A stretch of DNA of 18,743 nt from a virus. Below the pieces are notes generated by a model. The model had not been told where the DNA came from. It did no database searches and saw only the letters and a program-made list of their open reading frames with translations. The stretch is taken from UHGV virus genome UHGV-0092215; one strand, given 5' to 3'. A program made the position numbers and the translations under genes. Below, piece by piece: positions 1,211 to 11,236 of the stretch (the first letter of the stretch is position 1; the number at the start of each line of letters is the position of its first letter).

Positions 1211-1400
1211 CCCTGGCTCCTTTTGTTGTTTCTACCCGGCGTTCTGCAACAGCTTCAGTAGCAGTTGCACGTTCTTCAGTTCGTTGCTGGTCCGCTTTTG
1301 TTTCAGCAATACTGGCACCACGTGATTTGCCCAGACCAAAAGCACCGGCAATTGCTGCCAGCGCAGCAACAATCAGGCCGATAATCATTTCAAGTCCCAT
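1131..1400 (-). CDS. putative i-spanin-like membrane protein (Rz-like, 89 aa)
   Basis: Internal ATG at 1398-1400 (MGLEMIIGLIVAALAAIAGAFGLG..., one N-terminal transmembrane segment then a charged tail) with GAGG RBS; the ORF-track start at 1535 would overlap the endolysin. Shorter than a typical Rz, so the call is positional. Confidence 0.5.
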   Translation of the reverse strand: MGLEMIIGLIVAALAAIAGAFGLGKSRGASIAETKADQQRTEERATATEAVAERRVETTKGARDVQQTVNHLPDDDVDRELREKFTRKT

Positions 1401-1407
1401 AGTAACC

Positions 1408-2034
1408 TCACACCAGTGCGGCTTTAGCTTTGGCGTAACGTTCACGGCGGTCTTTAATGCCGTTCTGCCCGCCGTTAATAATCTGTGTGACACGCTCCAA
1501 ATCGCCCGGATACCGTAGACAACCGTTTGAAACATAGAACCAGGCAGCGCTGCGTGCAGCGTTAATGTCTTTTCCCAGCAGTTCAGGGTTGCTGACTAAA
1601 TCCAGTTTTAACGCCGTACCACAGGTCAGGTAGTTATCCAGGAAGGTGATCCCTATAATTCCGCGCCCCCGGTATTTCCACCCATCACCAGCCGACTTGT
1701 TGCCAAAGCGGCCTCCGTATACCAGATTTGCAATCGCCCGCTGGCGTTCGAGTGGCAGAACTTTTTCGTAATTTTTTCTTCCCAGCGCACTGGCCTGGTC
1801 TGGAGTAAGCCGCTTTACTTTCACAAAATAGGCTAATCCGTCGATGCTATAGTTGAAGCTTTCCACCAGTTGGGTAAAGCCAGTGCTTTCGTGCCCACAT
1901 TGCGCAATAAACATGGCCTGATCGAGTTTTGTCGTAATGCCGAATTCTTTCATTGCCGCATCAATGTGCGGAAACCAGCGTGCAGAAAGCCCGGCGCTGA
2001 TACCAGCCGCCTGCTGAAATTGTGATTGGTTCAT
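1408..2034 (-). CDS. phage endolysin, glycoside hydrolase family 19 (chitinase-like lysozyme)
   Basis: Internal ATG at 2032-2034 overlaps the upstream stop (TAATG); sequence from MNQSQFQQAAG... carries GH19-type motifs (AQCGHESTGF, NLVYGGRFGN, GRGIIGITFLDNY); sits between holin-like genes and spanins. Confidence 0.85.
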   Translation of the reverse strand: MNQSQFQQAAGISAGLSARWFPHIDAAMKEFGITTKLDQAMFIAQCGHESTGFTQLVESFNYSIDGLAYFVKVKRLTPDQASALGRKNYEKVLPLERQRAIANLVYGGRFGNKSAGDGWKYRGRGIIGITFLDNYLTCGTALKLDLVSNPELLGKDINAARSAAWFYVSNGCLRYPGDLERVTQIINGGQNGIKDRRERYAKAKAALV

Positions 2035-2315
2035 TATTGCCTCAGATGATCTACCAGACGTGCCACGTTGCCTCTGACGGCGACCAGCACGGACAGAAAG
2101 ATAATGTTGGCCCCGATAGTGGCCCATGATGAGTACGGGTATATACCGCACAGATACGCCAGCGGAACTGCGCTGTAGATGACCGTAAGCAGCCACGCCA
2201 GGCGAGATATCCACGGTCGATGTCGGGAATCACCACGACGGTAAAACATCAAGGTCAGCACTACCCCAGCGCAAAGCAATGCATTTAAAGTTGCCGATGG
2301 GTCATTTTGTACCAC
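2034..2315 (-). CDS. holin-associated small membrane protein (second holin or antiholin-like, 93 aa)
   Basis: GTG start at 2313-2315 preceded by GGGGAGG RBS; about 3 predicted transmembrane segments; between holin and endolysin. Confidence 0.6.
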   Translation of the reverse strand: MVQNDPSATLNALLCAGVVLTLMFYRRGDSRHRPWISRLAWLLTVIYSAVPLAYLCGIYPYSSWATIGANIIFLSVLVAVRGNVARLVDHLRQ

Positions 2316-2688
2316 CTGAACCTCCCCGGCGCGTTATCAGCGCCACCAGCGAGCCAACATCCTGATTATTCAGGAACGTCAGGATTTTGACGGCTAAAGC
2401 AGAAACGATTACGGCGCCAATGGCATCCAGTGGTTTATCACTGTAGCCGGTAGCCTGAGCCAGCTTTGAACCCACCAGCCCGGAACAAAGGATCCCCGCG
2501 ATATACGACACCAGAAAATATGCCAGTCGGCGCGCTGCACTTAGATCCGCTGCAGTTGCAATGTAAAAAACAGCCCCGGCAAATGCGCCAAACACCACAC
2601 CGTAATCGGTTCCGGACAGAAATCCATAGACGCTGGCCCCCGTCAGGACACCACCAGCCAGCCCAGTACCGGAAATCGGATCGGACAT
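2302..2688 (-). CDS. putative holin (128 aa multi-pass membrane protein)
   Basis: ATG at 2686-2688 with AGAGGGGG RBS; Gly/Ala-rich hydrophobic segments and charged C-terminus; first gene of the lysis cassette. Confidence 0.7.
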   Translation of the reverse strand: MSDPISGTGLAGGVLTGASVYGFLSGTDYGVVFGAFAGAVFYIATAADLSAARRLAYFLVSYIAGILCSGLVGSKLAQATGYSDKPLDAIGAVIVSALAVKILTFLNNQDVGSLVALITRRGGSGGTK

Positions 2689-2833
2689 TTAGCCCCCTCT
2701 TAATTGCTGTGATTCCTCTCAGAAATGAGGGGATGTGGAATCAGGCAACCGGGCTCTTTTGTTCAAATAAAAGTAAGGATGATTCCCGGTGCCTGAAAAT
2801 GGTAATCACCACATCCACAGGGCGTGATGATCG

Positions 2834-3886
2834 TTATGTTTTGCTCAGTTTTTCCACCTCTTCGGTGGTCTGAATAAATCTGTCAGCTTCCAGTTCTACT
2901 CCGATCGCCCGACGGCCAAGTTCTATTGCAGCTTTCACAGTTGAACCAGAGCCCATAAAGAAATCGGCAACGATATCCCCCGGCCTGCTGCTGGCGCTAA
3001 TGATCTGCTTCAGCATGTCGGCGGGTTTTTCACATGGATGTTTGCCTGGATAAAACTGAACAGGCTTATGCGTCCATACGTCGGTATACGGAACAAGAGC
3101 GGAAACAGAGAAGCAGCGCCGAAGGATTTTGTATTCCTCCAGCAATTCTGAATACTTGCGGTTTAATGACTGGTAGGTAGCCACCAGCTGGTGGTGAGGA
3201 TGTTCAAGCTTTTGCTGAATATGTTTATCGATGGCGATCCGCGTGAACAGTTCCTGCAATTTTCGATAGTCCACTTCATTCGGTAGTTGCCATTGGCTTG
3301 CACCAAACCAGTGTGACGCCATGTTTTTCTTTCCGGTTGCCTCAGCTATTTCTTTCGAGCTGACACCCAGCGATTCACGGGCATTACGGAAGTAGTCAAT
3401 CAGTGGCGTCATAATGTGCTGCTTTAGCTCTGTGCTTTTCCTTTCGTAAACATCCTCTTTACCTGTGTACGGCCCAAGATAGTGCTCAGCAAACAAAATC
3501 CGTTCCGTAGATGGAAAGTACGCACGCAGGCTTTCTTTGTTACAACCATTCCAGCGGCCCGATGGTTTTGCCCAAATTATGTGATTCAAAACGTTGAACC
3601 GGGCACGCATCATAATCTCTATGTCTGAGGCCAGTCGGTGACCGCAAAACAGGTAAATGCTGCCAGCAGGTTTAAGTACGCGAGCATACTCAGCCAGGCA
3701 GCTATCAAGCCAGCGTAAGTAGTCCTCGTCCCCCTTCCATTGGTTGTCCCAGCCGTTAGGCTTCACTTTGAAGTACGGAGGATCCGTAACAATCAGATCA
3801 ATAGAGTTATCCGGGAGGGTGGCGACGTAATGCAGGCTATCAGCGTTGATTAACTCAACACTGTTTATTTTTACAGTATTTTTCAT
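2834..3886 (-). CDS. DNA methyltransferase, beta-class (DPPY motif before FxGxG; N6-adenine or N4-cytosine)
   Basis: 350 aa; LIVTDPPYF near the N-terminus and FFMGSGST near the C-terminus; no restriction-endonuclease-like partner visible; no obvious RBS before the ATG at 3884-3886. Confidence 0.85.
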   Translation of the reverse strand: MKNTVKINSVELINADSLHYVATLPDNSIDLIVTDPPYFKVKPNGWDNQWKGDEDYLRWLDSCLAEYARVLKPAGSIYLFCGHRLASDIEIMMRARFNVLNHIIWAKPSGRWNGCNKESLRAYFPSTERILFAEHYLGPYTGKEDVYERKSTELKQHIMTPLIDYFRNARESLGVSSKEIAEATGKKNMASHWFGASQWQLPNEVDYRKLQELFTRIAIDKHIQQKLEHPHHQLVATYQSLNRKYSELLEEYKILRRCFSVSALVPYTDVWTHKPVQFYPGKHPCEKPADMLKQIISASSRPGDIVADFFMGSGSTVKAAIELGRRAIGVELEADRFIQTTEEVEKLSKT

Positions 3887-4036
3887 AGATCAGTAAGCGT
3901 AACTCTGATAGGCTCACGTTGCTTTTGCGCTAAAGCAGTGGGCCTTGGTTAGCTTGTGACCTGAAAGCATGAGCTGATGGCTGGCCGGGTGCGCTAACAC
4001 CCACCAGCCGCCCATTTCCACAGCAGAAAGCCCCCA

Positions 4037-4228
4037 TTACTGGAGGCGTTTATAACATCCAAACTGGTAATCAGATAAACCCGCCATCACCAGCTGCGTA
4101 AGTATGAGCTGGCAACGTTCGCGGCTGAGGTGGGTATTCTGTGCAATCTCCCCAGCCGTTGCTGGTTTATCGCTTAATTCATTGAAAACAGCCTTTGCCG
4201 TTTCTGTCATATCTTCCTGATTTAGCAT
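4037..4228 (-). CDS. small winged-helix-like hypothetical protein (63 aa)
   Basis: ORF-track ORF; composition resembles the small protein at 14247..14501 (..AGEIA..L..L...G..); weak RBS. Confidence 0.45.
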   Translation of the reverse strand: MLNQEDMTETAKAVFNELSDKPATAGEIAQNTHLSRERCQLILTQLVMAGLSDYQFGCYKRLQ

Positions 4229-4348
4229 GTCTTTTACCTAAAATTAGTTGCGTGACATACAGATAACTCTGGTTGGTGATACCAGCAAGAGAAGAATTCC
4301 ATTCTGCGACCGCCAGCGCCTTTATGCGCCGTGCATGGCTGATTTGCC

Positions 4349-4376
4349 ATAAAAAAACCCGCTCATCGGCGGGTTT
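4349..4376 (-). terminator. strong intrinsic terminator downstream of the Q-like gene (tR'-like)
   Basis: On the minus strand AAACCCGC-CGATGA-GCGGGTTT followed by TTTTTAT; lies about 90-120 nt after the Q-like stop. Confidence 0.7.
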
Positions 4377-4389
4377 ATAAAACTTTGGC

Positions 4390-4440
4390 AACATATCAAA
4401 TATGCTTTAAATATGGCTTATTTTGTTGCATTTTGCAAGC
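4390..4440 (-). promoter_or_regulatory. candidate late promoter (PR'-like) with qut-like region
   Basis: Minus-strand TTGCAA (4433-4438) then about 17 bp then CATATT/TATTTA; assigned mainly by position between the Q-like gene and the terminator; element match is weak. Confidence 0.3.
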
Positions 4441-4468
4441 GTGTTTGAAGGAGATAGTGAAATTTACT

Positions 4469-5158
4469 TCACATTTCTGCCACTTTGAGGGCTTCTTCTT
4501 CCTCATAGTATTCCAGAGCCATGGCCAATGCAGATTCATCAAGCTGCGTAAAAGCGGTCTTTAACCCAGCCCAGTGCCCTGAATAGACACGCAACCATGT
4601 CGAACGGTCAACGCTAACCATGCGGGCCAACGCTGCACCAGCATAGTCTTTATAGGTTTCATTATTTCTGGTTGCGGCAATTTCCTGCCCTGCCAGCCAT
4701 ACCAGGCCAATCAGTTTCTTTACTACGCGATCCTGAAGGGAATTATCACCCAGGCATTTCTGATAAGTTTTCCAGACGTATTCACACATCATCACCTGGT
4801 GCTTATAGCTAAGGTCAAAACCGTAGCAGTACCGCAACCAGGCCTGCTGGTATCCACTAAGCGCGGACACTGCCCTACGCCACGGCGCGGACTCAAATTC
4901 CGCATCTTTTATCGGCGGCATTGGCCTGCGGCGGCTGCGTGTTTCCAGTACATACAGTGGCGCGGAAAGCGAGTTAACAAAGCGTGGCCCCTTCTCTCCT
5001 TCGAGTTCGACGAGATGAATTCCACGGCGCGGGGTGGCATTTTTGTCTGCTGGTGGGTGTTCACTGAAAGCCTCAAGCTGCCCTTTTGTTCCCCCGGAGA
5101 GGTCAGGTAGCGCGCGGCGCAATTCTATTCTTACAAAATTCAGGTCTTGTTGATTCAT
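4469..5158 (-). CDS. putative late-gene antiterminator (Q-like, QuuQ/phage-82 type)
   Basis: 229 aa from the ATG at 5156-5158 (the ORF-track GTG at 5179 directly follows the upstream TAA and is the alternative start); followed by promoter-like sequence, strong terminator and lysis genes; a DUF968-like gene sits upstream as in E. coli Qin ydfU-quuQ. Family is from position and recall. Confidence 0.5.
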   Translation of the reverse strand: MNQQDLNFVRIELRRALPDLSGGTKGQLEAFSEHPPADKNATPRRGIHLVELEGEKGPRFVNSLSAPLYVLETRSRRRPMPPIKDAEFESAPWRRAVSALSGYQQAWLRYCYGFDLSYKHQVMMCEYVWKTYQKCLGDNSLQDRVVKKLIGLVWLAGQEIAATRNNETYKDYAGAALARMVSVDRSTWLRVYSGHWAGLKTAFTQLDESALAMALEYYEEEEALKVAEM

Positions 5159-5179
5159 GCTTCTTTGCGCTCCATACAC

Positions 5180-6175
5180 TTAAGCTGTCGCAATTACGCC
5201 GATCGCCAGCGCCCGATCCATAAAACGCAGTAGCAGCTCAAGCTGCGTACCATGCTTCTGCTCGAATGCCGGTACATCGGCGTGCAGCTCGTCGTGACAC
5301 TCTCTGCACAGAGGGATCACGAATAGGTCATGGGCTTTTGTTGCTGTACCACCCATACCGTGCCCTACGATATGGTGCGGATCATCTGCTGGCCGTCGGC
5401 AACACTCACAGGGTTGTGTTTTAACCCAGCGGGTGTACGTCTCATTTACCCAGCGGCGACGTTTTGGCCTGAGCATGAAAGACTCTGGCGACTCCGGATC
5501 AACAGAAAGCGTGAGAATCTTTTTCGCCTTCTCCTGCACGAGGCTGGCTGCTGAAGCGGAAGGCACAATGTCACTTTCCCTCATGACTGAGCTGCTCTTC
5601 TCATCCGGAAGCCGTAACCCCTTATGCGCGACGCTTTCCGGTATAACATCAGCCAGGTCGTTCCTGACCATCCACCAGCACAGTTCCGGTAACGTCAGGA
5701 TATGCGACTCGGGAAAACCAGAATCGCGACGAATGACTTCCAGAATCCAGGATACCAGGTTTCCTGCCGCTATATCTGCAAGCTGCTCGGTATGTTGCCC
5801 GGACAGGATGTGATCGCAATGCCAGCACAGGCGAATGCTTCCTGGCTCGTGCCTCATAATTGTGAAGTTCTTGTCGTGCCACGATGAATGGGGCCACTGG
5901 CATTCAAACCGTGAACTCAGCCACTGCTCAAGGGAAGAAAGCCCACCGGCACGCTGTATAACCCGTTCATTCCCGAAGACCTGCCGCATTACCGGATCCT
6001 CCGCCAGCGGCTGAATGGCGGTGGGAACAGCCCCGGTACTGAATGACGCCATTTCTTCTGGTTCAGGCTCGAGCAGAACGCGACCGCGCATGAAGAGATG
6101 CATCAGTTCCGCTCCGGGACGAAACAACACAATCCCCATACGGGAGGCTATTTCAGGTGTGAGTAATGCCCTCAA
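5180..6175 (-). CDS. DUF968-like (YdfU-like) protein with C-terminal Cys/His-rich motif
   Basis: 331 aa ORF; C-terminus CECCRRPADDPHHIVGHGMGG...CRECHDELH looks like a zinc-binding or HNH-like module. The ORF-track start is TTG; an in-frame ATG at 6101-6103 has a GGAG RBS, so the true start is uncertain. Confidence 0.55.
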   Translation of the reverse strand: MRALLTPEIASRMGIVLFRPGAELMHLFMRGRVLLEPEPEEMASFSTGAVPTAIQPLAEDPVMRQVFGNERVIQRAGGLSSLEQWLSSRFECQWPHSSWHDKNFTIMRHEPGSIRLCWHCDHILSGQHTEQLADIAAGNLVSWILEVIRRDSGFPESHILTLPELCWWMVRNDLADVIPESVAHKGLRLPDEKSSSVMRESDIVPSASAASLVQEKAKKILTLSVDPESPESFMLRPKRRRWVNETYTRWVKTQPCECCRRPADDPHHIVGHGMGGTATKAHDLFVIPLCRECHDELHADVPAFEQKHGTQLELLLRFMDRALAIGVIATA

Positions 6176-7059
6176 TTGCCGCCACCAGCCAGTTCTTTAT
6201 CGTGGGTGAAACTCCCGTTCCAGGTCACCTTCATCGGAAGCTTCCCTTTCAGATAGTTTTTGTAGATCCAGGTGGCCCCTTCCCGAAGCAGAACCGGCTG
6301 ATAGGTGGTAAAGCTGACTGCTGAATTTGGAGAGACTTTGCTGCTTTTCTCAGTGAGGTATTTATCACGCGCGTATGACCGGACACGCCATTGTGCGCTG
6401 CGTCCTTCCGGATTGTCGTCATATAACCAGTTCATCGAAACAAGCCAGGCGCTAATTTTTGAGGTATTAACGCCATTCAGACGTTTACAGAACTGTACTG
6501 GGGAAAGCCCATCAGTGAAGAGGCTCTCGAGATGCTCGATATATTCGGCTTGCTGGTGGGTAAGCGCCTCAGCTTGCTGCTTTGCCTCCATGGCATCCGC
6601 CCACGCACGCGCCAGGGTTATTGGATCAGACATATTCGGCAGCATGACACCGTGGACCTCACGAAGATTGAAGTAATGATCTTCAAGCTGTTCAAAGAAG
6701 TCCCAGGCTAATTCGGTTTCAAGCATTTTTGCGTGGCGGGAGGCGCCGCGCTCAGTCCAGAGATAAAGGCTGCGAGCCTTTGATGATATTTGCACACTGC
6801 TGAAAGAGTTGCGCAAATTTTCGACTTCATCACCCTCAATTCGAAAGTAATGCTTACCCTCAACAAAACGCATTTTATTGCGGTTAAAGTTATTCGTGAT
6901 GTTTTGCGCTGTTGTACCGTAGCCGCTTGCTAAAGATTCCGTAGTCACTACGCGTTGATTGCGATAAGTGATCACCGGCACCGATGAGTGATTAACGGAA
7001 ATTACTGATGAAGTGCTATTTTTGGGCGTAGCAGTGCCCATAACATGATGATTGCTCAT
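6172..7059 (-). CDS. phage antirepressor-like protein (ORF6N-type N-terminal domain, KilA-C-like C-terminus)
   Basis: N-terminal region ...NITNNFNRNKMRFVEGKHYFRIEGDEVENL... matches the ORF6N pattern I recall; ATG at 7057-7059 with GGAGA RBS preferred over the ORF-track start at 7164, which would overlap rusA. Confidence 0.6.
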   Translation of the reverse strand: MSNHHVMGTATPKNSTSSVISVNHSSVPVITYRNQRVVTTESLASGYGTTAQNITNNFNRNKMRFVEGKHYFRIEGDEVENLRNSFSSVQISSKARSLYLWTERGASRHAKMLETELAWDFFEQLEDHYFNLREVHGVMLPNMSDPITLARAWADAMEAKQQAEALTHQQAEYIEHLESLFTDGLSPVQFCKRLNGVNTSKISAWLVSMNWLYDDNPEGRSAQWRVRSYARDKYLTEKSSKVSPNSAVSFTTYQPVLLREGATWIYKNYLKGKLPMKVTWNGSFTHDKELAGGGN

Positions 7060-7145
7060 ATTATCTCCATACTCTGATTGTTGCGAAGGGCCTGCACGCC
7101 CGTTTCGCTTGCACTTTCCGACATTACTGCCATATCGACCAATAT

Positions 7146-7544
7146 TCAACCCACAGCTGGACATATAACCACCTCTTTTTTATATGCCGTTATGGTTATC
7201 TCAACTTTTCCCTTCGGTACTATTGGCCCCCATTCCACCAGCATGCGCTTAATCTGGCTGTCGTCTTCCCAGACACCCGCATGCGTCAGCGCGTCAAACA
7301 GGGCTTTGTTGTAATTATCGATATCCCGGCGGCGCGCATCCGGCGGGTACAGAGTGATTTCTACCGCTGCCAGTTCAGTCGATGGCTTCGGGAGACGTCG
7401 TAATTGCTCAATGATCGCCACGCAGGCAGCGCTCTGGTATTTACGACCATTAGCGCTAATGAGGTGACGACCGGCCAGCGGCCCTTTGTTAGGGGCGCGC
7501 CAGTAAGCGTTTACGCTCGGAGGAAAAGGCAGGACCAGTTTCAC
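7146..7544 (-). CDS. rusA: crossover junction endodeoxyribonuclease RusA (Holliday junction resolvase)
   Basis: 132 aa; LPFPPSVNAYWR and RRRDIDNYNKALFDALTHAGVWEDDSQI match RusA; GTG start overlapping the upstream TGA (GTGA) with GGGGAGAGG RBS. Confidence 0.9.
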   Translation of the reverse strand: MKLVLPFPPSVNAYWRAPNKGPLAGRHLISANGRKYQSAACVAIIEQLRRLPKPSTELAAVEITLYPPDARRRDIDNYNKALFDALTHAGVWEDDSQIKRMLVEWGPIVPKGKVEITITAYKKEVVICPAVG

Positions 7545-8419
7545 GCGGCCTCTCCCCGCATATTGCGAACAAGTTCAGAAGCTGCAGTAATGATTTCGCT
7601 GGTGGCCGTTCGTTCCAGCCAGAGTTGACTGATGTTGGCTTTCAGCTTGTTCTGCTGAGCCTCACTCAATACGTCAACGCCTTCCACCTGGTTAAACACC
7701 AGACCAACCTCGAGAGGCCAGATACGTGACTCAGTTTCCGATGGTATGACTGGCTCCTGGGTTGCCCGCATTGCAATTGTCGGCTCTTTGCCAACAGCGA
7801 ATTGAGCCAGCGCCATAAATGCCCGACCTTTTGCCTCCAGTTCTGTGCGGTTGATATAGCTGAACCGCTCACCACGCCACGACTTATCGAATACAGCTAT
7901 GGCACCGGCAAAAAACGCACTGGTGGGCTTCTGTTTTTCGTCAGCAGGTACAAACCACACAGGCAGATCGAAGCCAATACGACCGCGAATAAACATGATG
8001 TGATCGGCGTCTTCCGGCCACCATGTTTCACTTGTCGCCGCTTTAATGAGGAACACGTAACGCCCACCCTTTTCACGCATCTCCATTGTGTGATCCATGA
8101 TGTGGGTCATGCCGGTGATCACCTGCTTCTCGTGGTACTGCGAACGGCTATACGGTGGGTTGCCATAGCCAGCGCCACCCAGTTCAGCCAGACGTTCAGA
8201 CCAGTCCTGCGTCAGCGCGTTATCTTCGGCGGTGTACCATGCCGGGAATTTCGCGTTGTCGTCGTCAGCAAACAAATCCAGAACTAATGGACCAAATAGC
8301 GCGTTGATCCCCCAAAAAAGCAGATCCGGTGTCCGCCACTGATCGCCAACTTCTTTCAATTCATGGGCTGGTTTGCTACGCAGTGCCGCCAGCGCCTGGC
8401 AATATTTATTGGTCATCAT
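7541..8419 (-). CDS. phage Dam-like DNA N6-adenine methyltransferase with about 110 aa C-terminal extension
   Basis: 292 aa; DLFADDDNAKFPAWYT followed by GNPPYS (motif I then NPPY), typical of the phage Dam family; start overlaps the upstream stop (ATGA). Confidence 0.8.
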   Translation of the reverse strand: MMTNKYCQALAALRSKPAHELKEVGDQWRTPDLLFWGINALFGPLVLDLFADDDNAKFPAWYTAEDNALTQDWSERLAELGGAGYGNPPYSRSQYHEKQVITGMTHIMDHTMEMREKGGRYVFLIKAATSETWWPEDADHIMFIRGRIGFDLPVWFVPADEKQKPTSAFFAGAIAVFDKSWRGERFSYINRTELEAKGRAFMALAQFAVGKEPTIAMRATQEPVIPSETESRIWPLEVGLVFNQVEGVDVLSEAQQNKLKANISQLWLERTATSEIITAASELVRNMRGEAA

Positions 8420-10543: not shown

Positions 10544-11236
10544 ATGAATATTGGAAACCGCATAAGAGAACTTCGCACTGCGAAGGGCCTGAAAATCGCT
10601 GATCTTGCAGAGGCTGTCGGTGTCGACGGCGCAAATATCTCTCGCCTTGAAACCGGCAAGCAGAAGTCATTTACTGAACAATCACTTAGTAAATATGCTG
10701 AAGCTTTAGGCGTTAGTGTCGCTGAGCTATTTACTCCTAGTGGAAATGCAACTACTGTATATAAAAACAGTGTAACAGCCCCACATATTGGAGATGACTC
10801 GGTGTTTAGAGTGGAAATTCTTGATGTTAGCGCTAGCGCTGGCGGAGGCTTTATTCAAGGTAGCGACGTTATAGATGTCATCAGATCCATCGAATACAAC
10901 AACGAGCGTGCTTTATCCATGTTCGGTGGTCGGGCAGCTGAGCAAGTGAAGGTAATCAACGTTCGTGGCGATAGCATGGCAGAGACTATTGAGCCTGGCG
11001 ACCTGATTTTCGTTGATATTTCAATACATGAATTCGACGGCGATGGTATATATGTATTTGGTTTTGATGACAAAATATATGTTAAGCGTTTGCAGATGAT
11101 ACCAGACCAATTGCTAGTAATATCAGATAACCCAAAATATCGAGAGTGGTCTGTCGATAAATCGAATGAGCATCGTTTTTATGTCTACGGGAAAGTAATG
11201 ATAAGCCAATCTCAGTCATTTAAACGCCACGCCTAG
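10544..11236 (+). CDS. cI: CI-like prophage repressor (N-terminal HTH, C-terminal S24 LexA-like peptidase domain)
   Basis: 230 aa from ATG 10544; HTH LKIADLAEAVGVDGANISRLETGKQ; C-terminal GDSMAETIEPGDLIFVD...YVKRL typical of S24 self-cleaving repressors. Confidence 0.9.
   Translation: MNIGNRIRELRTAKGLKIADLAEAVGVDGANISRLETGKQKSFTEQSLSKYAEALGVSVAELFTPSGNATTVYKNSVTAPHIGDDSVFRVEILDVSASAGGGFIQGSDVIDVIRSIEYNNERALSMFGGRAAEQVKVINVRGDSMAETIEPGDLIFVDISIHEFDGDGIYVFGFDDKIYVKRLQMIPDQLLVISDNPKYREWSVDKSNEHRFYVYGKVMISQSQSFKRHA

Follow-up and report, generated by a model that had tools for sequence, protein, structure and literature searches.

Why would a lambdoid phage carry a potentially toxic DNA methyltransferase (MTase) among its late genes, without a restriction enzyme to accompany it, and how would it keep such an enzyme in check? 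The question is raised by positions 2834-4376, read on the minus strand, of UHGV virus genome UHGV-0092215, a stretch of 18,743 nucleotides that we refer to as the window. A sequence-only reading of this interval had described an orphan beta-class adenine MTase, carried as cargo between the Q-dependent terminator and the holin gene and expressed late so as to methylate progeny DNA against host restriction. Our analysis confirms the observation and supports the interpretation in part: the orphan, late, anti-restriction reading is a reasonable one, while its assumption of a target specificity and its picture of the leader have to be changed. The overall reading at which we arrive, and which we regard as likely, is that an M.EcoGII-type orphan MTase is made late under the control of Q, provides sequence-independent protection against restriction, and is gated by a structured leader RNA and by a palindrome in its first codons.

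The order of its motifs places the enzyme in the beta class, with DPPY at residues 35-38, FMGSG at residues 310-314 and the central domain between them, and the match to PF01555 spans residues 29-336. Over 348 of its 350 residues it is 75% identical to M.EcoGII, with only two one-residue gaps and with the central domain as the most divergent part (the M.EcoGII sequence was taken from Supplementary Table S1 of PMC11551740, machine-read from the PDF with a few evident reading errors). It is also 70% identical to the reconstructed ancestor Anc284/SUPREM, which is reported to act on both DNA and RNA, to be largely non-site-specific on RNA and to show no discernible RNA methylation motif (PMC11551740). 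M.EcoGII itself methylates DNA adenine in any context and accepts RNA and single-stranded DNA as substrates; it is silent in the lysogen, its overexpression slows growth, and it has been proposed to defeat restriction (PMC5778455; PMC7544214). Among enzymes whose recognition site is confirmed, the one closest to M.EcoGII, M.PflMI, is just 27% identical to it and lacks the charged interdomain linker (PMC11551740); the putative linker region of the window enzyme, HPHHQLV...YK.LRR, aligns to M.EcoGII without a gap. The best solved structures match the catalytic core only. The resemblance to M.EcoGII/M.EcoGI of E. coli O104:H4 C227-11 (PMC5778455) extends to length (350 against 349 residues), to motif order and to being prophage-borne and an orphan, and every member of the M.EcoGII cluster lies in a phage-derived region (PMC11551740). 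The differences are the 25% of residues that have changed, mostly in the central DNA-binding part, and the hosts: the exact window protein is present in Citrobacter (C. freundii) and Salmonella genomes, as against E. coli for M.EcoGII.

Most likely, then, the MTase is an M.EcoGII orthologue that would N6-methylate adenines in any sequence context. The NCBI name of the protein, "site-specific DNA-methyltransferase", is an automatic family label and probably a misnomer. Because of the 75% identity to a sequence-non-specific enzyme, the hunt for a target motif that followed from the sequence-only reading is probably misdirected, and the finding of no attributable methylation motif, which that reading had counted as a refutation, is the outcome to be expected if the protein is non-specific. 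A parallel is offered by the promiscuous phage adenine MTases of the alpha class (Drozdz et al., as cited in PMC5778455), which have relaxed or no specificity and are thought to give broad protection from restriction. Theirs is, however, a different architecture, because the motif order is the opposite one (FxGxG first, DPPY last).

Is the enzyme really an orphan? On the minus strand, to which all the genes here belong, the order is Q, the terminator t1, a winged-helix open reading frame (ORF), a spacer of 150 nucleotides, the MTase and the holin (Table 1), and the lysis genes 3' of the MTase comprise two holins, a GH19 endolysin and a spanin. The placement that had been described, after the Q-dependent terminator and before the lysis genes, is thus borne out, as is the small winged-helix-like ORF, and the MTase would be the second gene of the late operon. 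A restriction endonuclease next to the MTase in related elements had been named as what would overturn the orphan reading. We searched for one adjoining the MTase in the window, in phiNP, phiP27, Stx2a_1447, Stx2c phages, phiKO2, SfV, E. coli Nissle and in 10 E. coli contexts, and found none. In the window the MTase is flanked by the winged-helix ORF (or Q) and by the holin, and the adjacent endonuclease by which a Type II restriction-modification system would be recognised is absent there and in the related loci inspected.

How might such a gene be held in check? Between the winged-helix ORF and the MTase, and reaching into both, lies a near-invariant block of about 215 nucleotides (approximately 4047-3832), which runs from the winged-helix stop codon to about codon 18 of the MTase. 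When the window is compared with 75 other distinct loci, identity within the block is 84-95% per 50-nucleotide bin, synonymous sites included; elsewhere, in the winged-helix ORF and the remainder of the MTase, third positions wobble in the ordinary way and bins lie at 59-87%. BLASTN still recognises the leader in phages whose MTases are 56-60% identical, and the alignment of these showed compensatory changes. A covariance model, R1, was built from 16 leaders. In 51 of 59 sources, phiKO2 included, it detects a single copy, which lies immediately 5' of the MTase; it reaches leaders before homologues down to 52% identity and gives a weak match in the Aeromonas phage phiARM81ld (E 9e-4). When IMG/VR was searched with a DNA pattern that ignores the MTase, 120 copies of the leader came up, and in every one of them the MTase follows within 120 nucleotides.

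The structure of the leader is conserved along with its sequence. The pairs of the model are formed in 91.3% of alignment cells, as against 77.7% in shuffles and 31-46% when the partners are slid; both sides have changed in a compensatory manner in 24 of the 32 base pairs, and the covariation score is 0.336 compared with at most 0.079 in the slid controls. The covariation is carried by helices P1, P2 and P3, the closing helix UGGGC/GCCCA is invariant, and the unpaired CAUGC, GCGCA and AGCCUA are nearly so. It was the covariance model that resolved these helices, plain MAFFT with RNAalifold over all lineages having misaligned the helix arms and given a poor consensus. The stable hairpin that the sequence-only reading had placed at 3969-4001 is real, but its boundaries have to be redrawn (Table 1) and it does not stand alone: it forms helix P1 within the multi-helix leader, with compensatory changes in 9 of its 11 pairs. 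The leader has no match in Rfam 15 at E up to 1 (window, phiKO2 and loci L118 and L085), the only nearby Rfam hits being sub-threshold Trp and Leu leader matches that fall on t1, and a literature search for regulation of the MTase or a small RNA at this position returned nothing relevant. The conserved, covarying and MTase-specific leader with its two alternative folds appears to be undescribed.

Two other accounts of the block were set aside. That it is a mere recombination linker between mosaic modules is rejected by the covariation of its helices. That it encodes a small protein, starting from the ATG in the invariant AAATGGGCG, is rejected because in the phiKO2-type group a stop ends the frame after 5 codons, and because indels in the loops shift it. 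We also observe a GATC (Dam site) at 3888-3891 on the minus strand, 2 nucleotides before the MTase ATG and within a conserved UGAUC; in many relatives a GATC occurs in the loop of P2 as well (GGAUCAC), and the two elements are co-present or co-absent across lineages.

A further set of pairings, mutually exclusive with those of the model, is conserved too. AUGGGC:GCYCAU (S1:S2) is paired in 94.9% of cells with every change preserving the pair by wobble, and AGGC:GCCU (S3:S4) is paired in 96.5%. The leader could thus adopt either a three-way junction (fold 1, S1:S3 with P1 and P2) or an extended hairpin (fold 2, S1:S2 with P1, together with S3:S4). In most lineages the alternative pairing has the lowest energy, the three-way junction being 1-9 kcal/mol less stable.

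The palindrome lies just inside the gene. In codons 4-9, TACTGTAAAAATAAACAGTG fits CTGT-N8-ACAG with an A/T-rich centre and agrees with the E. coli LexA operator consensus, TACTGTATATATATACAGTA, at 16 of 20 positions; strict patterns of this kind number two in the window against 0.22 expected. Of the 157 loci compared, 117 carry a strict box at ORF position +10, with a background of 0.05 per kb elsewhere in those loci. Its arms are constant while the centre varies, and the arms, unlike helices P1-P3, show no compensatory change, which suggests recognition of sequence rather than of fold. This SOS-box-like sequence in the first codons also appears to be undescribed; published work on M.EcoGII gives no description of genomic position, leader or SOS-box-like sequence. 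In a separate lineage of 13 loci, whose MTases are 52-55% identical to that of the window and which have no leader, a CTGT-N8-ACAG box lies about 170 nucleotides upstream (for example in L141; L139-L156); it adjoins a -10-like hexamer, TATGAT, and precedes a ribosome site, AGGAG. Since this box is in a promoter-like position, direct SOS control is plausibly used elsewhere in the MTase family. The window box has no adjacent promoter, and so the only mechanism that we can offer for it, a speculative one, is that LexA bound there would act as a roadblock to leaky read-through. The second strict pattern of the window, CTGTATATAAAAACAG at 10755-10770, is found inside a cI-like repressor gene (10544-11236, helix-turn-helix and Peptidase_S24), in the linker between the two domains, where it encodes T-V-Y-K-N-S, which resembles the T-V-K-I-N-S encoded by the MTase box.

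How could these pieces work together? We propose that in the lysogen transcripts from the late promoter would end at t1 and those that leak through would end at the weaker t2, so that the enzyme would not be made. Message that escapes both terminators would be poorly translated, because it has no Shine-Dalgarno sequence and is folded, and LexA may also block transcription. Upon induction, Q-modified RNA polymerase would read through both terminators, the MTase would be made alongside the lysis and morphogenesis proteins, and it would hypermethylate replicating phage DNA before packaging, so that Type I, II and III restriction would be blunted in the next host with no need for a match of sites. 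In this scheme the leader, of about 130 nucleotides, and the codon 4-9 palindrome, both of which travel with the gene, probably gate or limit MTase output and would serve as extra locks on a toxic enzyme. The non-specificity, the toxicity and the silence in the lysogen are carried over from the M.EcoGII literature, and the methylation of progeny DNA against host restriction, put forward by the sequence-only reading, is the function that was proposed for this characterised relative (PMC5778455) and would apply here by analogy.

Could the enzyme serve some other end? One alternative is a site-specific orphan MTase that protects against one or a few particular restriction systems. The NCBI name points that way, as does PADLOC, which places the protein under Type II MTases, and it is the central domain that has diverged most from M.EcoGII; but database names are automatic, the protein is close to both M.EcoGII and a largely non-site-specific ancestor, and the site-specific enzyme closest to M.EcoGII is the distant M.PflMI, so that we consider this unlikely. 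Another notion, that the MTase supplies the methylase of a restriction-modification system, or of some other defence system, whose nuclease is encoded elsewhere in the prophage, could draw on a DUF968 protein that weakly matches HNH-type nucleases and lies directly upstream of Q (5180-6175). DUF968 is, however, a standard lambdoid gene without a PADLOC hit, the loci inspected have no MTase-linked endonuclease, and an MTase without specificity recognises no site that a cognate nuclease could have in common with it, all of which makes a hidden partner very unlikely. It is also conceivable that the main role is not anti-restriction at all but modification of RNA, or the marking of DNA for replication, packaging or late gene control, in the way that Dam marks DNA for P1 packaging. 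In favour of such a role are the GATC just before the MTase start, the presence in the early-right operon of a second adenine MTase (7541-8419, minus strand; Dam family PF05869, TIGR01712 phage N-6-adenine-methyltransferase), and the action of M.EcoGII on RNA and single-stranded DNA (PMC5778455, PMC7544214). But nothing points to an RNA target, the activity of M.EcoGII on RNA is about 90-fold below that on DNA (PMC11551740, supplement), and many lambdoid phages package normally without this MTase, from which it follows that the gene is accessory; we hold a main role of this kind to be improbable. With one MTase of the Dam family in the early-right operon and one of the M.EcoGII type in the late operon, the phage would possess one early and one late MTase.

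A more evenly poised question is what the leader does. One possibility, which we put forward tentatively, is that it is an undescribed gene-specific cis-regulatory RNA that some factor toggles between the two folds, in combination with a LexA operator, such that the MTase is released only when Q, SOS and the switch concur. Candidates for the factor would be S-adenosylmethionine or S-adenosylhomocysteine, or else a protein, either the MTase or an accessory one, for instance a winged-helix or Com-like neighbour. A serious alternative, also possible though we would not call it probable, is a passive leader, a second terminator followed by a stable 5' structure that lowers translation or protects or processes the late mRNA, with no switch and no LexA and with the palindrome acting as an RNA hairpin. 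The terminator-like hairpin that always precedes the leader, the lack of a Shine-Dalgarno sequence and the dispensability of the winged-helix gene all suit a passive leader, as does the fact that no ligand or protein partner has been identified. It accounts less readily for the conservation of two mutually exclusive pairings, with P2 covarying and S1:S2 maintained through wobble-preserving changes, for the near-invariance of unpaired segments, and for palindrome arms that lack the compensatory changes seen in the helices. The pairing that hides the start codon in the window's lowest-energy fold was rejected as a conserved element, and its lack of conservation also suits a passive leader.

A known system that resembles our proposal is com-mom of phage Mu, a toxic DNA-modification gene under translational control. 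Like the window gene, it modifies adenine late and in a potentially toxic way, is controlled in layers and has a structured region about its start codon. The differences are that Mom is not an S-adenosylmethionine-dependent MTase, that the structure of the leader is unrelated to Mu's, and that the window has no Com homologue and no identified activator. No Com-like zinc-finger gene lies directly upstream of the window MTase; such genes occur in distant homologues only. In two of these, Aeromonas phiARM81ld and locus L138, the leader precedes a Com-like zinc-finger gene that lies between leader and MTase and overlaps the MTase start. L138 and L084 (2862-3077) are among the distant-homologue loci, with MTases of 52-55% identity, that have other controls.

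Several points weigh against the reading that we favour, that of a non-specific, late and gated MTase. A divergence of 25% from M.EcoGII could in principle have restored a sequence preference. The dependence on Q is argued from anatomy, and the late promoter is a weak match, at 8 of 12 positions, chosen by eye. One half of the start-codon-hiding pairing is kept in just 56% of cells, and the UGAUC on the translation-initiation side is missing in the phiKO2-type group. The structural alignment from which the pairs were counted was fitted to the model and hence favours it, and the leader alone folds no better than shuffled sequence (z = -1.8); what sets the hairpin apart from chance is the covariation across loci. 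Finally, the arms of the LexA-like box are partly constrained by Thr-Val and Asn-Ser codons, and a coding region with no promoter found nearby is an unusual site for a repressor.

Table 1. Features of the late-gene interval and of the leader RNA, in window coordinates
Feature	Position	Strand	Evidence or remark
Q antiterminator gene	4469-5179	minus	PF06323, E 3e-36; phrog_304, E 1e-71; upstream boundary of the slot
Candidate late promoter, pR'-like, TTGCAA-17-CATATT	4410-4438	minus	Picked by eye; 8/12 consensus positions, under the scan threshold
Terminator t1, tR'-like	4347-4376	minus	Terminator scan: 8-bp GC-rich stem (4376-4355) and seven T
Winged-helix ORF, 63 residues, stand-alone	4037-4228	minus	phrog_331
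Terminator-like hairpin t2, weaker	4020-4047	minus	Scan: hairpin 4047-4030, then UUUCUGCUGU; overlaps the winged-helix stop codon
Structured leader RNA	3881-4018	minus	Near-invariant block; covariance model R1, 168.5 bits in the window
Leader element S1	4010-4014	minus	
Leader helix P1	3979-4009 (core); 3969-4014 (extended via S1:S2)	minus	Hairpin of the sequence-only reading; 9/11 pairs compensatory
Leader helix P2	3949-3977	minus	
Leader element S3	3939-3943	minus	
Leader helix P3	3920-3937	minus	
Leader element S4	3910-3913	minus	
Leader helix P4	3889-3909	minus	
MTase start codon, ATG	3884-3886	minus	
LexA-box-like TACTGTAAAAATAAACAGTG	3859-3878	minus	MTase codons 4-9; can also form a hairpin
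MTase, 350 residues, beta-class N6-adenine, M.EcoGII family	2834-3886	minus	PF01555, E 4.7e-44
Holin	2302-2688	minus	PF16931, E 1e-33; phrog_198; downstream boundary, start of the lysis cassette

Late, Q-dependent expression, as the sequence-only reading had proposed, agrees with the gene order, and it is the natural reading because no sigma-70 promoter was detected for the MTase, nor one overlapping the LexA-like box: the scan found no such promoter-like site on either strand of 2000-5300. Two candidates seen by eye were dropped, TTAGCG-17-TATCAG, which misses the key last T and varies between lineages, and an antisense TTGATT-18-TACAGT, which is not conserved in the phiKO2-type group. The candidate late promoter lies between the Q stop codon and t1, the position that it has in lambdoid phages, and t1 begins 93 nucleotides after that stop codon. 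Across related loci the sequence of t1 is 70-90% conserved, and the promoter region upstream of it is not conserved. At the position of t2 every representative leader has a GC-rich hairpin and a U-run, though with differing sequence, and the phiKO2 equivalent is annotated as a terminator just 3' of the late promoter. The earlier remark that the MTase has no obvious Shine-Dalgarno sequence holds: none is visible in the 20 nucleotides before the ATG (GUUACGCUUACUGAUCU), in contrast to the holin, which has AGAGGGGG. An ORF of 71 residues at 4179-4394 on the minus strand matches no family and overlaps both t1 and the beginning of the winged-helix gene; it was treated as spurious.

How general is this arrangement? 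The winged-helix ORF and the MTase occur as a pair 3' of Q in phiNP, phiP27, SfV, Stx2c phages, Stx2a_1447 and E. coli Nissle 1917. In phiNP, a Citrobacter phage, the MTase is 83% identical in protein sequence; the pair is L23 and L24 in the Stx2e phage phiP27, where two tRNAs and stx2e follow, and orf47 and orf48 in SfV. The modules of phiP27, SfV, the Stx2c phages and phiNP are alike in having the two genes about 150 nucleotides apart between Q and the lysis genes, with the leader present and with MTases 78-83% identical to that of the window. Stx2a_1447, whose MTase is 93% identical to M.EcoGII, has the same order of winged-helix ORF, leader and MTase, followed by three tRNA genes and stx2. 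The difference from the Stx phages is that these carry tRNA genes and stx after the MTase, while in the window, which holds no tRNA genes, the holin comes directly after it; the Q types differ as well. Similarity to related loci stops immediately 3' of the MTase stop codon. In 9 of the 10 E. coli winged-helix contexts the MTase lies 150 nucleotides downstream, the tenth MTase being interrupted by an insertion sequence element. Many phages of the lambdoid and N15-like kinds share terminator, leader and MTase as one conserved unit.

The winged-helix ORF is a frequent but dispensable neighbour. Among 79 close loci, 15 retain leader and MTase while other genes stand where the winged-helix ORF would be, and it was not detected in phiKO2-type loci; the 63-residue protein also shows no BLAST similarity to the winged-helix protein gp51 of phiKO2. 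These absences rule it out as a partner that the leader requires. It has two Cys residues and no zinc-finger match, and its automatic database names are various: TrmB family regulator, DprA-like winged helix and Z-DNA-binding protein.

Is this, then, a classic cargo slot? As regards location it is, since the pair lies between pR'/tR' and the lysis genes, the lambdoid moron slot 3' of pR' (Juhala et al. 2000, as cited in PMC4104026) that also receives stx and other accessory genes. It does not look like a free-standing moron, which classically has its own promoter and terminator, given the lack of a promoter in the scan; the unit seemingly relies on read-through from pR'. In relatives the gap between Q and the winged-helix ORF or leader is itself a variable cargo site, with some of the cargo in reverse orientation. 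It may hold a reverse-oriented NA37 nucleoid-associated protein with a 408-residue protein, a KAP NTPase, an SDH Clp-fold serine protease (Nissle), or other ORFs. Such cargo is seen in L159-L168 (about 1366-3755), in L158 (5765-6883) and upstream of the leader in L007, L011 and L016.

The MTase of the window is an ordinary member of a populated and already characterised family in a known position, and it is the leader and the SOS-box-like sequence, rather than the gene or the slot, both of kinds already known, that merit follow-up. More generally, the "site-specific" labels on this MTase and on hundreds of relatives are probably wrong, which alters what methylome work should look for. If true, late methylation of all adenines would amount to a general pass through restriction barriers. 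Since the MTase occurs in many temperate phages of the Enterobacteriaceae, Shiga-toxin phages included, this would bear on phage host range and gene transfer. M.EcoGII is widely used for chromatin footprinting and its natural control has not been described; a leader dedicated to this MTase family offers a direct route to studying how phages silence such an enzyme and, if it is a true switch, could become a new regulatory part.

Two further features of the window deserve mention. An ORF6N-domain antirepressor-like protein (6172-7164, minus strand) weakly matches PDC-S05 (E 4e-11), one of the candidate defence families of PADLOC. Chi sites (GCTGGTGG) number 17 in 18.7 kb, about 30-fold more than the 0.54 expected from shuffles, and 12 of the 17 are on the minus strand, which is the strand of the early-right and late operons. 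Examples on this strand are 4001-4008, 2343-2350, 3181-3188 and 5672-5679, and one lies within the 5' arm of helix P1.

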